Positions 6,713 through 41,540 of a stretch of DNA of 64,000 bases are shown piece after piece (the first letter of the stretch is position 1; every line of letters begins with the position of its first letter). Both the position numbers and the translations under genes were made by a program. The notes below the pieces were generated by a model. That model worked only from the letters and a program-made list of their open reading frames with translations. It searched no databases and had not been told where the DNA came from. This DNA comes from a virus (taxonomy: Duplodnaviria > Caudoviricetes), in the IMG/VR virus record IMGVR_UViG_3300032135_000003, positions 1 to 64,000 of that record; one strand, written 5' to 3'.

Positions 6713-7136
6713 TCTATAAATAAAATATTCTCCTTCTTGGCTTTCTTCGCCATCATAACTGTTTATAAAATGCCCTCTACTATCTGCGGTAATAGCTTCC
6801 TCAATAAAACCATCTATTCCACATGTACTATTAACAATACTTTCTATTGCCTCATTGTTACTCTCACATCTTCCATTATCTTGTATAGCTTTAAATACCT
6901 CTTCATCTATCCCTGTCTCGCTTGATAGAAAACTAGGATTAAAAGCCCACAAAGTTTCTTTTATATCTTCTTCTGCCCTTGCATCTGCTTCTTTATCAGT
7001 TAAAACCATGTATTCTCCATTTTCTTCAGTTTCAAAAGTAAATTCATCATAACCTTCTGTAATAGTGGATTTTTTAACCCCTAAGAAATTCGCTAAAGCT
7101 GTAATTCGTTTCATCTTATTTGTTTTTTAGTATATG

Positions 7137-16741: not shown

Positions 16742-16791
16742 TATATCACCAATAGGGGATATATCTTATTGGTGATATACTTATGTTAGGT
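16742..16791. mobile_element. attC-like site (partial)
   Basis: TATATCACCAATAG/TTATTGGTGATATA hairpin then GTTAGGT at 16785. Confidence 0.45.
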
Positions 16792-17111
16792 GCAATTAAA
16801 ACCTCGGCTCTTGATGAATAGGTGGTTTATCAAAAAATAGCCTAATAGTCTTTTGTGGTTTAACTTGGTCAGGCAAAAATTCACCAAATTCACGAACCAT
16901 ATTCGTTTTAGCAAGTATGTGATGATTTACACTTACATCAAAGTCCTTTGCAAGTATATTCCAACTCACACCTTTTGTCATTCCTTTGTTTACACTACTA
17001 ACTTTTGTCCAGTCAGTAATTTTTGCCTTTGCGGTTTCAAACATTTGTTGTAGTTGTTCGTTAGTAATCGTTTCGGCAATTTTTCTTGCATCATTTCTAT
17101 TCATAATCCGT

Positions 17112-17146
17112 ACTGTGCCTAACAGTGTATAAATGTTAGCAGTAAT
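17112..17146. mobile_element. Collapsed attC-like site
   Basis: GCCTAAC-N11-GTTAGCA between two ORFs. Confidence 0.5.
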
Positions 17147-18568
17147 TATTCCACCACTATTAATTCTTCTGCTCTAAAAAACTGAACCCAATCTTTACCA
17201 AATTCCTCTGCATTTAAAACAATTTGAAATTCTACATCTTCTTGTAAAATATCTTTAATTGTATATTCAACACCATCAGGCAATCCAAGTCCTACTTTTG
17301 CATTTTCAGCGATGTAACATTTATCACCAACTTTGAAATTTTTCATAATTTAAATATAAAGATTATCAAAAGCTTCTTCTAAGCACTCATCAAAACTAGC
17401 GCCACCATTGTAGAACCTTAGCTCAAAGCTTATAGATTCATCTTCGTTTTTACTAGCTCTAATTATATCTCCATCGTCTTCGTAACCATCAGTATCTAAC
17501 TTATACAGTTTCTGCGTTTTTTCGTGGAAGAAGTACTCATTATAATACTCATCACATAAGCACTCAATAGCATTACTATAATAACTAGGTATTTCTTTAT
17601 TCTGATTTTTTAAAATGTTTTCTGCTACATCATTTAGAGTTTTTCCTTTAGGTTTTATCTCTATTGCTGTTCCTTTGTAATATACTGTTTCACTCATTAT
17701 TTAATTTTGAAGTTATTTTCTAACGGTTTATTGCCGCCAGATATTGAATTATTATACTTTAGCAAACTTTGGATAAATATAGTAATTTTTACCCTATTTC
17801 TATTTTCTTTAGCCCCAACTGTAACATTCTTATTTGACTATCTTTCTCTTTTAATACTAGTCTTACTAGTTCAGCAGGTGCTGTCCCTCTCTGTCCATGC
17901 TTCTCTATCATTTCTCCTGATAAATCTAATGTATTCACTACATCATATAGCATACTATCTAATTCTTCTTTACTCCAACAACTCATACTACTATTTATTT
18001 TCAGTTATTACCCTTGCTCTTTCTAACCTATCAATTGCTAAGTATGAAAGTATTAACCAAGTTACAGGGTTATCATCATAATATGCAGCTACGCCTATAA
18101 TAATTAATAATATTAAAGGCATCCACTCAGTTATTTTTTCTAATTTCATTTTATTTATTTCCTGTTATATGTACTACTACTTTTATCTGTATATTTGTTG
18201 CTGATACTCCAACCACCTTTATATGCCAGTCTTTTTCAAGTTTATTTAACTCTTCTTCAACCGCTTCTGAGGAACCTGTTAATATTTTATAACTCATACT
18301 AATATATTTTTATTATAGTCATCTACACTCTTAAATTTTTTAACCGTTGTTGTTGTACCTTCGTAATCGCCAGAATCAACATCAACATTATAAGGAATTT
18401 TCCATTCTTGATGCACTTCTTCATTTTCTTTCAATATACAAGAGTAAGAACAAAAGTCGTCATCCCAATACTCGTCTTTCCAGTTTTCTTTGGTAAATTC
18501 TTTCATAATTAAAATTATTTAGATTATTCAATATACTTTAAGTTGATTGATATATTAATATCAGCGGG

Positions 18569-18614
18569 ATATCAACAATAGAATTGGTGATATACACATG
18601 TTAGCGGTAATTTA
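18569..18614. mobile_element. attC-like site (partial); similar to the 16742 site
   Basis: ATTGGTGATATAC-nn-ATGTTAG shared; GTTAGCG at 18600. Confidence 0.45.
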
Positions 18615-18914
18615 ATAAGAAAGGTATTTATCAAATCCAATTTCAACGTAAAGCCTTTCATCAGTTATATCACTTTTAAAAAATTTTTTTCCTAATTTTG
18701 ATAGTTTGTCATAATCACCTCCTAACAGTTCTGCGGCTTTTCTACAATAGTGTGTACTTATAATCAGTTTACCTGTTCCAGAGTGAGTTACATTTTCATA
18801 AACTTTTTTAAATAGGTAGGTATATTTTTCAGATGTAGTTAAATCAAATAAACTACTGCTAACACTTGGTATAGTGTATTGCTAGGTTTCTGCATTTTTA
18901 TTATCTGTATTCAC
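18612..18914 (-). pseudogene. 100-codon ORF interrupted by an in-frame TAG at codon 11
   Basis: GTG AAT ACA GAT AAT AAA AAT GCA GAA ACC TAG CAA TAC..., then open to TAA at 18612; missed by the ORF track. Confidence 0.5.
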
Positions 18915-18988
18915 AATTCAAAGTTTTGTAATTGTTGATTAAGTTCGTACTGTAAGGTCGCAACGTCACCATACCATAAACGTTAGCT
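18857..18988. mobile_element. Full-length attC-like site (132 bp)
   Basis: TGCTAAC-actTGGTATaGTGtaTTGC ... GCAAcgtCACcATACCAtaaac-GTTAGCT imperfect inverted repeat. Confidence 0.6.
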
Positions 18989-19468
18989 GCAACTAAAGTT
19001 AGTTACCAAGCACTTCATTTATAACATCATTACTAAACTTGATTTTCTGTAAAGCGGTTTCTAACTTGTGCAGTTTTGTAAGGGCTTGTGTATTGCTTTC
19101 ATTTACCGAATTTATGGCGCAAAATAGGCATTGTCTTGCATATTTATCCCCTATAAATTCTTCTTCACAGTTTACACACGTACCTGAGTAGTTTCCTGGA
19201 GCAAAACCGCCTATTGGATATTTTATCTTCATAATTTATATTTTTACTAGTTGTAAATATCCACAAGAAAATGAACCACTAAAGCCTTCCAAGAATACAA
19301 CTTCTGATGTATTTTTCTCTCGTTGAAAAGAGTCTGATTCTATTGTCCACAACTTACCGTAATTTTTAGGATGTCTTGCCTCCATACAATCAAACATCAC
19401 AACTTTTTGTCCTTTTTTAAAATTCTTTAACTTCATAATTTTATATTGTATTTTAGTTGTGTATAATG

Positions 19469-19639
19469 CTAAGACATCTCCCACACTTCACAAACTAAGT
19501 CATTTAAAGTTATTACAGCAGTATGTCTTTCAGATTTTGGGTTAGTGCAAGTGTGTTTTTTCCTTTTACCTTTGTAAAAACTTTTGCAGAATTTACAATC
19601 TTTACACTTAGCTTCTCTTGTATAGGTTATTACTCCCAT
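19469..19639 (-). CDS. Small Cys-rich protein (56 aa), cassette-like
   Basis: MGVITYTREAKCKDCKFCK...HTCTNP...LVCEVWEMS; absent from the ORF track. Confidence 0.6.
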   Translation of the reverse strand: MGVITYTREAKCKDCKFCKSFYKGKRKKHTCTNPKSERHTAVITLNDLVCEVWEMS

Positions 19640-19666
19640 TGTTTAAATTTTTAGTTTCTTAAACTC

Positions 19667-19792
19667 ACATAACAATGTATAAAAATAGGCGCACAAGCTA
19701 CAATTATGATCTTTGCTTTATGATTTTTAGCTACACAATCAAGGGTTAGCCCCCTCTGCTACGTTGCGCCTTATCTTTATATAGTGTTAGTG
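19667..19792. mobile_element. Full-length attC-like site (126 bp)
   Basis: ACATAAC-aatgTATAAAaATAGGCGCA ... TGCGCCtTATcTTTATAtagt-GTTAGTG; the upstream gene's stop lies in the TAAC end. Confidence 0.6.
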
Positions 19793-20107
19793 TTCATTTT
19801 CCAAAGCCTCAAAAGAATTGTCGCCTAGTCTTTTTAATAACCTATTAATCTTAAATGTTTTTTGCGAATCAACCATTTCCCTAAATTTAAAATATTTGTG
19901 CATCATTACAATTTGTTCAATCATAATTTCCACATCTGCAATTTCTTCTACTAAGTTGCTAAAACTTGAGTCATCATTTTTTCTAATATGTTTTCTAACA
20001 GCAAGCGCAAGTTCTGTGGCTTCCTCCTGTGCCATTTCTAATTGAGCCTTTTCACCCCATTTTTTAAGAGCCATTTTGTAAACTTTTTCTCTTTGTTCTA
20101 AATTCAT
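19787..20107 (-). CDS. MazG-like all-alpha NTP pyrophosphohydrolase
   Basis: EEATEL...EEIADVEIM (ExxE...ExxD) motif. Confidence 0.8.
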   Translation of the reverse strand: MNLEQREKVYKMALKKWGEKAQLEMAQEEATELALAVRKHIRKNDDSSFSNLVEEIADVEIMIEQIVMMHKYFKFREMVDSQKTFKINRLLKRLGDNSFEALENEH

Positions 20108-26551: not shown

Positions 26552-27127
26552 TTAATTAGTTTCAAGTAACATCTTTTCTTTGCCCTCCTCTAAAACTTTA
26601 TCTTTAAATAAAAGGTATCTTTCTTTTGCTATTTTAAATACGGGCATTAAAACTCTGGTAGAATAATCCTTATCGTAGTTAGCATGACATTGGTTCTCCG
26701 AGAAAATTCCGCAGAGGTATAAAATGTTTAAATCCTCCGTAGCAACAGATTTATATTTACCTTTAGAAAGTGAATGGGCAATTTCATCAACCCCTGTTCC
26801 CCTGAGCTTATCTCCACAGTTCTCACATACTTTCTTTTCATTGATAACTATTTGTATATGTTTTATAAAAAAGTCTCCATAACCCTCTCTATCAGCTTTA
26901 CGTTTCTCCATACCTTTCTTTGTAAACTTCTTTATAGGCTTGTTAGAAGATTTTATGGGAGATTTCTTTAGAACAGTTTTATTCTCTGTGTACTTATTAA
27001 GTTGTTTTGCATGTAGAGGGCAGCAACTTTTTCCAAAGTGCTCACTATCCTTGTTCTTAATCTTTGATCTAATAGAGCCTGTCCACTGACAGTCTTCTAT
27101 ATCACATTTGTATGTCTTATTTTTCAT
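26552..27127 (-). CDS. Zinc-binding HNH/NinG-like nuclease
   Basis: CENCG...EIAH...LC...CHANYD. Confidence 0.5.
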   Translation of the reverse strand: MKNKTYKCDIEDCQWTGSIRSKIKNKDSEHFGKSCCPLHAKQLNKYTENKTVLKKSPIKSSNKPIKKFTKKGMEKRKADREGYGDFFIKHIQIVINEKKVCENCGDKLRGTGVDEIAHSLSKGKYKSVATEDLNILYLCGIFSENQCHANYDKDYSTRVLMPVFKIAKERYLLFKDKVLEEGKEKMLLETN

Positions 27128-27141
27128 AACTCTTGGGTATA

Positions 27142-27170
27142 AAAAAACCAGGTAGTCCAGTACCTGGTTT
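27142..27170 (-). terminator. Intrinsic terminator after the tRNA-like RNA
   Basis: ACCAGGTA-CTGGAC-TACCTGGT-TTTTTT. Confidence 0.75.
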
Positions 27171-40927: not shown

Positions 40928-40991
40928 TTTATTTATTTTAAAGTCCACCACCAATGCTAATGAATAGCAGGAGACTGTTGTATTAAAGGTG

Positions 40992-40999
40992 CAATGATA
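40992..40999 (-). promoter_or_regulatory. Probable -7 element of the tRNA operon promoter
   Basis: TATCATTG (one mismatch to TAnnTTTG) about 65 nt upstream of the leader ATG. Confidence 0.5.
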
Positions 41000-41090
41000 C
41001 AACAAGTATTTCAATTACACAAGTTAATGAGCTAAAAATTTATAATTTCAAAAGTTTACCACTTTTTATATTTAGTGGCAATTATTGGAT

Positions 41091-41118
41091 AAAAATAACC
41101 CCCTAACTAAAGGGGGTC
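41091..41118 (-). terminator. Intrinsic terminator insulating the tRNA operon
   Basis: GACCCCCT-TTAGTT-AGGGGGTT-ATTTTT. Confidence 0.7.
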
Positions 41119-41157
41119 TAATAATCAATTTAACAATCAAACTAACAGGCAATATTT

Positions 41158-41421
41158 TTAATAGTTCTCTGAAACTATATCTTCTTGGTCTGGCTTATAA
41201 CGAAAAGAGTTTAATAAAAAGGATTCTAACGTTCTAGCTGCTACTTGAATGGAAAGAGCTCCATTGGTTTTTTGGTGCATGCGAAAAAGGTCGAAGGTTA
41301 CTTCGGATATAAATTCACTGTTTTTTTCTATATAAGAATTTGAAATTAAGTTCTCACTAATATAGTCATCCCATATTAGCTCTTTAAATTCTTCTAATCT
41401 GTGGTAAATTTCATTTTGCAT
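41158..41421 (-). CDS. Hypothetical protein with its own canonical promoter (41443-41473)
   Basis: ORF; CAAATATA 41443 and CAAA 41470. Confidence 0.6.
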   Translation of the reverse strand: MQNEIYHRLEEFKELIWDDYISENLISNSYIEKNSEFISEVTFDLFRMHQKTNGALSIQVAARTLESFLLNSFRYKPDQEDIVSENY

Positions 41422-41540
41422 CTTAACTTGGTTTTAACACTGCAAATATACCACCTTAGTCTTGAATTTCAAAAAGTCTGAATTAGAAATTTATATTGAA
41501 AATAAGTGCCTAAAAATTAGGATTATAATAAAAGAAGTTG

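Follow-up and report, generated by a model that had tools for sequence, protein, structure and literature searches.

A probable orphan cluster of integron-like cassettes in a 131-kb marine phage genome

The genome examined here is the single 130,947-bp viral contig IMGVR_UViG_3300032135_000003 (33% G+C; 86% complete according to CheckV), and the window is its first 64 kb (64,000 nt). From approximately 40 kb down to 1 kb all genes of the window are small and lie on the minus strand, and between 16.7 and 19.8 kb several of them are separated by imperfect palindromes that the first-pass annotation had likened to integron attC sites. The locus therefore raises the question of whether these genes are mobile cassettes, and if so which recombinase acts on them. 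We put at roughly three in four the probability that the stretch at 16.7–19.8 kb is an orphan, partly decayed cassette cluster and that the integron-like system to which it belongs is native to phages of marine flavobacteria. This reading is carried by a family of sites, by exact breakpoints, by the link of the sites to a recombinase, by the covariation of cassette ends and by one cassette common to this phage and the Polaribacter phage Freya.

A family of sites and the cassette shared with Freya

Read on the gene-sense (minus) strand, five intergenic sites of the window have the same order of parts: a stop codon, a box of the form ATTRYNNNYAAC, a break and a hairpin-forming stretch. Their GTT triplets lie at 16785, 17135, 18600, 18982 and 19786 in plus-strand coordinates. 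Two of the five carry imperfect palindromes of approximately 130 nt (elements D and E), two carry hairpins with the outer arm missing (A and B) and one is minimal (C). The sequence features listed by the first-pass annotation were all present, at its coordinates or no more than 1–2 nt away. They comprise the two palindromes with their TAAC and GTTA ends; the two partial hairpins, which are homologous to each other (blastn E 1e-6) and both lack the far arm; the collapsed site at 17112–17146, which is the minimal element C; end-to-end complementarities of 12/14 and 8/10; and the stop codon of the MazG-like open reading frame (ORF; 19787–20107, minus strand), which is the TAA inside CAC-TAA-C. 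With R'' and R' as the outer boxes and L'' and L' as the inner arms of a site, the features are as follows.

19786–19792, minus strand: site S5, an R''-type end CACTAAC that closes the MazG-like gene, with its putative break between 19786 and 19785
18982–19785, minus strand: unit X1, consisting of element E and three small genes (19639–19469, 19484–19236 and 19232–18999), ending at site 18982
19666–19785 (19666–19792 with the S5 end), minus strand: element E, a wholly intergenic attC-like hairpin that opens unit X1 on its 5' side
18600–18981, minus strand: cassette X2, consisting of the 142-nt attC-like element D and a pseudogene homologous to Freya2_67
18851–18990, minus strand: element D in its array context, with R'' from X1 (18982–18990), a 4-nt spacer, L'' (18968–18978), a loop of approximately 90 nt, L' (18866–18875) and R' (18851–18862)
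17135–18599, minus strand: unit X3, consisting of hairpin B and six small genes, ending at site 17135
18568–18595, with GTTAGC at 18600, minus strand: hairpin B, the 5' part of X3, with no outer R' arm
16785–17134, minus strand: cassette X4, consisting of a minimal attC (R'', 11 nt and R' at 17112–17123) and a 102-residue gene (16796–17104), ending at 16785
17112–17146, minus strand: element C, a minimal site of the form CCTAAC-11 nt-GTTAGC
16742–16779 (region 16742–16784), with GTTAGG at 16785, minus strand: hairpin A, a perfect 13-bp stem with a 12-nt loop directly past the break at 16785

Because a left-half motif alone was not enriched genome-wide and a weight matrix of six sites was not specific in this AT-rich genome, a 48-position, sequence-only model of the whole junction was adopted (model R1; 27 junctions, none from the window). 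When the 64 kb were scanned on both strands with filters off, the site at 16785 ranked first (11.9 bits), 18600 second (11.1 bits, match at 18578–18616), 18982 fourth and 17135 seventh. All four were found on the gene strand, directly past stop codons and within 2.2 kb of each other, and the chance of four out of seven random matches falling in that stretch and on that strand was estimated at approximately 3e-6. The weight of the result lies in rank, strand, position after the stop codon and clustering, and the single scores are marginal. Four of the five window sites follow the pattern of the junction family (ATTRYNNNYAAC, break, spacer, TATA-like box, GTT). In the 67 kb of the genome outside the window nothing scored above 9.3 bits, and in 222 kb of other loci every match with E <0.1 was located inside an array. 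The third-best match in the window (27116–27147, plus strand) lies opposite to the genes, overlaps a start codon and was judged to be due to chance.

When positions 15–22 kb of the window were compared by blastn with 50,697 phage records, one strong match was obtained: 18590–18984 was 84% identical at the DNA level to nine records of Polaribacter phage Freya, a siphovirus of 44–49 kb. Nothing else in the Freya genomes matches this phage. The alignment begins at GTTAGC (18600) and stops at CGTT (18985), and hence the homology spans one site to the next. Its counterpart in Freya is the 100-codon gene Freya2_67, located two genes upstream of the gene for Freya's 271-residue integrase, and the first 20 codons of Freya2_67 run into the counterpart of element D. 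In the window the homologous gene (18612–18915, minus strand) begins with GTG, compared to ATG in Freya, and is interrupted at codon 12 by an in-frame TAG (18884–18882), with no alternative start downstream. Recoding of TAG as a rescue of this gene was considered and rejected, since TAG is an ordinary stop in this genome, and the gene is for the same reason a pseudogene. No relatives of its protein were found in IMG/VR.

The natural polymorphism of Freya shows how such units come and go. Among the seven isolates compared (Freya_1, 2, 5, 6, 8, 9 and 10), the differences were presence or absence of gene blocks, all in one region beside the integrase gene; the cassette in common with the window, for instance, is missing from Freya_1. 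Freya_10 corresponds to Freya_2 (99.99% identity over 44.8 kb) plus 4,097 nt with ten small genes, inserted exactly between the shared gene block and the integrase gene. Each junction was found immediately 3' of YAAC on the gene strand; nothing was common 3' of the break, and only the triplet and a loosely similar box were common 5' of it. The empty site reads AAC, approximately 47 nt, and the integrase ATG. Specialised transduction as the source of the variable DNA was rejected because both junctions of each block lie at consensus sites and the cassettes are nested. The first-pass annotation had proposed to check whether gene gain and loss in relatives breaks exactly at G/TT, and had named breakpoints elsewhere as a refutation; breaks exactly at the triplet were obtained both among the Freya isolates and between the window and Freya. 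The published description of Freya gives one integrase and genome sizes of 44.0–48.9 kb, with no array reported (PMC8776804).

Array-linked recombinases and the signature of circular cassettes

The other outcome that the first-pass annotation had named as a refutation, a lack of related repeats tied to a recombinase elsewhere, was not observed either: such repeats occur in Freya, Danklef, Ingeline and five IMG/VR contigs. In the IMG/VR loci L025–L030 the integrases are 36–39% identical to that of Freya, and each integrase gene is preceded on the same strand by site arrays and an attI-like junction, the last site being 50–65 nt ahead of the integrase ATG. No such arrays were found with bacterial homologs of the integrase (22–36% identity; Cytophagales, Chitinophagaceae and others). 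In Danklef, Freya's sister phage, whose integrase is truncated, the array was identical in the two isolates compared.

The 271-residue Freya integrase contains Phage_integrase and SAM_4 domains. Its best match in NCBIfam was archaeal XerA (146 bits), followed by XerD and XerC, and positions 7–258 of the 263-position XerA model were covered by residues 14–263 of the array-linked integrase. The score against the integron-integrase model TIGR02249 was 96.5 bits compared to a cut-off of 265. XerA was also the closest match in the PDB, and the match to IntI4 ended at residue 169–171, ahead of the IntI insert. The five IMG/VR homologs (265–268 residues) have kept the R-K-H-R-H-Y catalytic set. Judged from length and model coverage, the array integrases have no room for the IntI insert of approximately 35–45 residues. 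An AlphaFold model of one array integrase was too poor (predicted local distance difference test score of 63) and was not used in this judgement.

Several further observations were made at these loci. In Danklef_1 (40982–41491) the integrase gene is a 5'-truncated remnant: its first 95 codons are lost, and at approximately codon 96 it is joined to a second copy of 79 nt from the 5' end of cassette Danklef1_60. Only a 132-nt ORF is annotated there as 'integrase'. An HNH endonuclease gene lies directly 3' of the integrase gene both in Freya (locus L003, 873–1496) and in Danklef (locus L022, 41498–42121). In Cellulophaga phage Ingeline_1 (approximately 6880–7000) the junction upstream of the integrase gene is almost identical to the attI-like site of Freya, and a 9-bp GTTAG/CTAAC palindrome stands just ahead of that junction; model R1 gave no clear array there. 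The arrays of L025, L028 and L030 contain a repeat of approximately 60 nt with the loop TCGTTTTAATG, present in two to four copies per array and recurring across contigs. This repeat resembles the uniform repeats of chromosomal integrons, and the same loop is found in the Polaribacter phage P12002L.

If a cassette were excised as a circle opened at AAC, its own R'' at the 3' end and its own R' at the 5' end should covary, since both would be arms of one stem. For 40 cassettes from Freya, Danklef, L025–L030, P12002L and the window, the summed own-end complementarity was 324, compared to 275.6 ± 6.0 after shuffling; the maximum among 20,000 reassignments was 301, and none reached the observed value. 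An own match of at least 10/12 occurred in 15 of the 40 cassettes, compared to 1.9% of the non-own pairs. Own-end pairing of this kind is the signature that circular cassettes would be expected to leave in sequence.

The offset of the R' box is close to 40, 51, 80 or 118 nt, and the corresponding sites measure 64, 75, 104 and 142 nt. The circularised junctions (approximately 20 sites) are predicted to share one fold design, with an R stem of 10–11 bp, an L stem of 10–20 bp, a variable loop and a one-sided bulge of 3–4 nt in the 5' arm just past AAC-G. The repeated 60-nt site has a consensus fold with five compensatory pairs, and the R and L stems covary among the seven sites of 142 nt. In this class the start codon lies in the loop, and L' and R' are translated in a frame that differs between cassettes, so that it is the DNA, and not the protein, that is constrained.

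The elements of the window compare with this design as follows. In element D, which belongs to the 142-nt class with its seven covarying cassettes, the gene start is held in the loop of approximately 90 nt. The DNA fold of element E (−16.3 kcal/mol, z = −1.97) has an R stem and a long L stem, with an internal loop of 3 nt between the two, and a variable loop; the far arm of E pairs with the S5 end if a 1-nt bulge is allowed. S5 is the weakest of the five sites and is supported by its motif, by its overlap with the stop codon and by the fold of E. Hairpin A (z = −4.55) is homologous to B and has no R' arm. Elements D and E are each single-copy in the genome, and no family was matched in an Rfam scan of 14–23 kb.

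The first-pass annotation had taken the units to be single-gene cassettes. For X2 and X4 this description fits: the own ends of X2 are complementary at 10/12 positions (offset 118) and those of X4 at 9/12 (offset 11), compared to 8/12 with the end of its upstream neighbour. X1 and X3, on the contrary, hold three and six genes and have no matching R'. In X1 no GTT box of the 5' part matches the unit's 3' end, and X3 has no own-end complement. X1 is probably a fusion of several former cassettes, and both units are probably fused remnants. The 102-residue protein of X4 is a member of a family of unknown function that is well conserved and very widespread (453 clusters at E <= 1e-10). It shares 54% identity with a protein of Pseudomonas phage Medea1, and neither Pfam nor PHROG gave a match. 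The closest homologs of X4 are 87% identical, and in five other viral contigs homologs of the gene have no flanking sites of this kind. The MazG homolog in Cellulophaga phage phi10:1 is likewise an ordinary gene with no sites.

The following mechanism would account for these observations. Each cassette would end in a box of approximately 12 nt, ATTRYNNNYAAC (R''), just past the stop codon, with the DNA broken immediately after AAC. The next cassette would start with a spacer of 3–5 nt, followed by the L'' arm, a variable loop that often includes the ribosome site and the start codon, the L' arm and a GTT-initiated R' box. Upon excision as a circle, a cassette's own R'' would be joined to its own L''-loop-L'-R', giving one imperfect, attC-like hairpin of 64–142 nt. 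In the phages that own the system (Freya and several of the IMG/VR contigs), the Xer-like enzyme of 265–271 residues encoded just downstream of the array would add and remove cassettes at the attI-like junction. The substrate is probably the folded strand, with one strand pair exchanged at AAC as in integrons and in CTX-type Xer reactions, because no overlap is common to the partners and conservation is seen in the fold but not in the sequence.

In classical cassettes the gene precedes its attC; here the order is reversed, with each hairpin placed ahead of its gene and extending over the gene's first codons. Integrase, attI and hairpin nevertheless appear to be arranged as in a classical integron whose genes are read on the other strand, and each cassette would consequently bring its hairpin, and probably its own expression signals, ahead of its gene.

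Orphan arrays and competing explanations

The absence of an integrase from the window, already stated in the first-pass annotation, was confirmed and extended to the whole 130,947-bp contig, in which no tyrosine recombinase was found: the 131-kb genome gave no PF00589 match and no tblastn match with six array integrases. No tyrosine recombinase was found either in a 92%-complete relative of this phage. Thus both the Xer-like recombinase of 265–271 residues and the attI-like junction downstream of an array are missing from this genome, and for lack of an integrase the window cluster is regarded as an eroding orphan. Its decay is indicated by the missing R' arms, the pseudogene of X2 and the fused units.

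A second integrase-less phage, P12002L, was not used in training model R1, yet 14 R1 sites were found in it, in two clusters.

P12002L (locus L055), 29.2–32.9 kb and 38.1–40.9 kb, minus strand: R1 site clusters bounding three DNA methyltransferase genes, an HNH endonuclease gene and small genes

These clusters are interleaved with core replication genes, and their sites are well kept. Since neither the phage of the window nor its 92%-complete relative holds a tyrosine recombinase, the window cassettes were either inserted in trans by an enzyme of the Freya type or captured as a block. The two separate and well-kept clusters of P12002L favour insertion in trans, which may have taken place in a lysogen or in a co-infected cell, the sites of the window having eroded since.

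Several points weigh against an orphan cluster of this kind. The contig is only 86% complete, and a recombinase could lie in the missing part. There is no sign of recombination in this phage itself, and the relatives sought to reveal indels of its own lineage had only approximately 55% protein identity and almost no early genes in common with it, so that no close relative is at hand. The window sites score 8.9–11.9 bits with E-values of 0.02–0.2 each, and site 19786 was missed by model R1. X1 and X3 fail the own-end test (6/12 each). In the four bases past the break, the window and Freya copies of the shared cassette differ at two positions, which is compatible with drift and leaves the exact break point unproven. 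The array of Danklef was compared in two isolates only, and folded single strands and single-strand exchange were deduced from sequence features.

The strongest competitor, which we consider unlikely although deserving of serious attention, is that a 3-kb block was captured en bloc from a Freya-like array in one illegitimate or homologous event and that its sites are passive relics never used in this phage. The four units are contiguous, co-oriented and bounded by the sole such sites in 131 kb, no recombinase is present, and the pseudogene, the missing R' arms and the fused units are the signs of decay that a relic would have. The outer borders of the block, however, are also sites of this type (19786 at the MazG end and 16785), and the 14 well-kept sites of integrase-less P12002L, in two clusters amid core replication genes, are better explained by repeated insertion.

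Much less probable is the idea that these are true attC sites served by an IntI integron integrase of the host. The AAC/GTT triplets and the layout of R and L boxes are indeed attC-like, and HattCI called one P12002L site of this family an attC (PMC9892861). Of six sites, however, that same one alone was not recombined by IntI1 (PMC9892861). Furthermore, every array-adjacent recombinase has 265–271 residues and follows the XerA model from end to end, with 96 bits against the cut-off of 265 on the integron-integrase model; the match to IntI4 ends before the IntI insert; and the gene orientation is reversed. The claims of the first-pass annotation concerning circularisable cassettes, attC-like sites, recombination at AAC/GTT, a tyrosine recombinase supplied from outside and subsequent erosion are supported, with the difference that the enzyme is Xer-like and not IntI.

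An equally poor prospect is offered by regulatory hairpins, that is, terminators or promoter and leader structures, with the likeness to Freya due to mosaicism by homologous recombination. The hairpins do sit between genes, and the loop of element D holds the gene start and a conserved upstream stretch. A terminator and promoter scan of the gene strand, on the other hand, revealed no T-runs, no terminator-like match and no excess of promoter-like sites, and hairpin A, with no T-run after it on that strand, is not an intrinsic terminator. Neither the pairing of the far ends of cassettes nor the integrase-adjacent indels, all of which break after AAC, would be explained by regulation.

Miniature inverted-repeat transposable elements or footprints of homing endonucleases are the least credible of all: D and E do have terminal inverted repeats and HNH genes do occur beside the Freya integrase gene and inside the Danklef and P12002L arrays, but target-site duplications are absent, the flanking sequences stand in inverted and not in direct orientation, neither D nor E has a second copy, the Freya counterpart of D belongs to the gene, and homing would leave the end-to-end covariation unexplained.

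Relation to known systems and significance

The orphan cluster and the arrays to which it is related resemble integrons, above all the sedentary chromosomal ones with their uniform attC repeats, and clusters of attC sites lacking integron integrases (CALINs) in several respects. IntegronFinder defines a CALIN as two or more attC sites, found by the attC covariance model, with no integrase near them. The break is at an AAC/GTT triplet; each site is an imperfect palindrome in which unpaired bases separate the R and L boxes and the loop is variable; cassettes mostly hold one small gene; one site gives rise to both ends of a linear cassette; cassettes are inserted beside the recombinase gene; and orphan arrays occur. 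In contrast to integrons, the recombinase here is Xer-like, has 265–271 residues and is without the IntI-specific insert. The break is on the 5' arm of the coding-strand hairpin, which lies upstream of the gene and over its first codons; the R box is 10–12 bp; the arrays reside in phage genomes; and the integrase gene is downstream of the array and co-oriented with it, the cassette genes pointing toward it, whereas in integrons they are transcribed away from the integrase from a common promoter. The system is integron-like, but it is not an integron.

Xer recombination and the elements that exploit it are known from archaeal XerA/dif, from the pdif modules of Acinetobacter and from integrative mobile elements exploiting Xer such as the CTX phage. 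Modules of the pdif type lie between XerC-6-XerD sites of 28 bp whose orientation alternates. The array recombinase is nearest to XerA, XerC and XerD, and by analogy with CTX an exchange of single strands is likely to be resolved by replication. The sites here are nevertheless not dif-like 11-6-11 cores. They are directly oriented and chained, and they are folded palindromes of 35–142 nt with arms 11 to approximately 120 nt apart.

A further comparison is with the promoter early stem-loop (PeSL) cassettes of T4-type phages, in which small accessory genes of a hyperplastic early region have repeated stem-loop flanks and are shuffled between phages. PeSLs are thought to act via homologous recombination. 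The elements described here differ from them in sharing only the triplet, in being tied to a tyrosine recombinase and in the covariation of cassette ends.

In full-text searches no description of an Xer-type integron-like system in Bacteroidota phages was found, and published precedent is limited to predicted CALINs in phages. Qi et al. (2023) predicted CALINs in virulent phages and read two sites of P12002L as classical attC sites (PMC9892861). One of these, P12002L_attC1, agrees in loop motif and layout with the repeats of L025, L028 and L030, and the failure of IntI1 on it fits a different cognate enzyme. Compared to the two sites predicted there, 14 sites of one family were found in P12002L here, and neither a cognate recombinase nor natural polymorphism was reported in that study (PMC9892861).

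Taken further, these findings raise a possibility to which we give somewhat less than even odds. Marine flavobacterial phages may draw on one cassette pool, a phage Xer-type recombinase without the insert that integron chemistry is believed to require may act on folded single-stranded hairpins, large virulent phages with no such enzyme of their own (the present phage and P12002L among them) may gain and lose cassettes in trans, in lysogens or during co-infection, and the whole may represent a second form of integron, either independent or ancestral.

For the phages themselves, an integron-like exchange of cassettes would explain in concrete terms how the small accessory genes of their early regions are replaced so quickly, and among the cassettes of the orphan arrays of P12002L are several DNA methyltransferase genes. 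It would also explain how a single 382-nt unit came to be common to an unrelated 131-kb phage and the 45-kb siphovirus Freya, whose isolates constitute a cultured system for direct testing of the reaction.

Integrons have been held to be bacterial and to depend on one specialised family of enzymes, IntI. The logic of the integron, that is, folded sites, an AAC/GTT crossover, circular one-gene cassettes and a docking site by the recombinase gene, would here be found in phages with a plain Xer-like enzyme and a mirrored gene orientation, which bears on the evolution of integron chemistry from Xer recombination.

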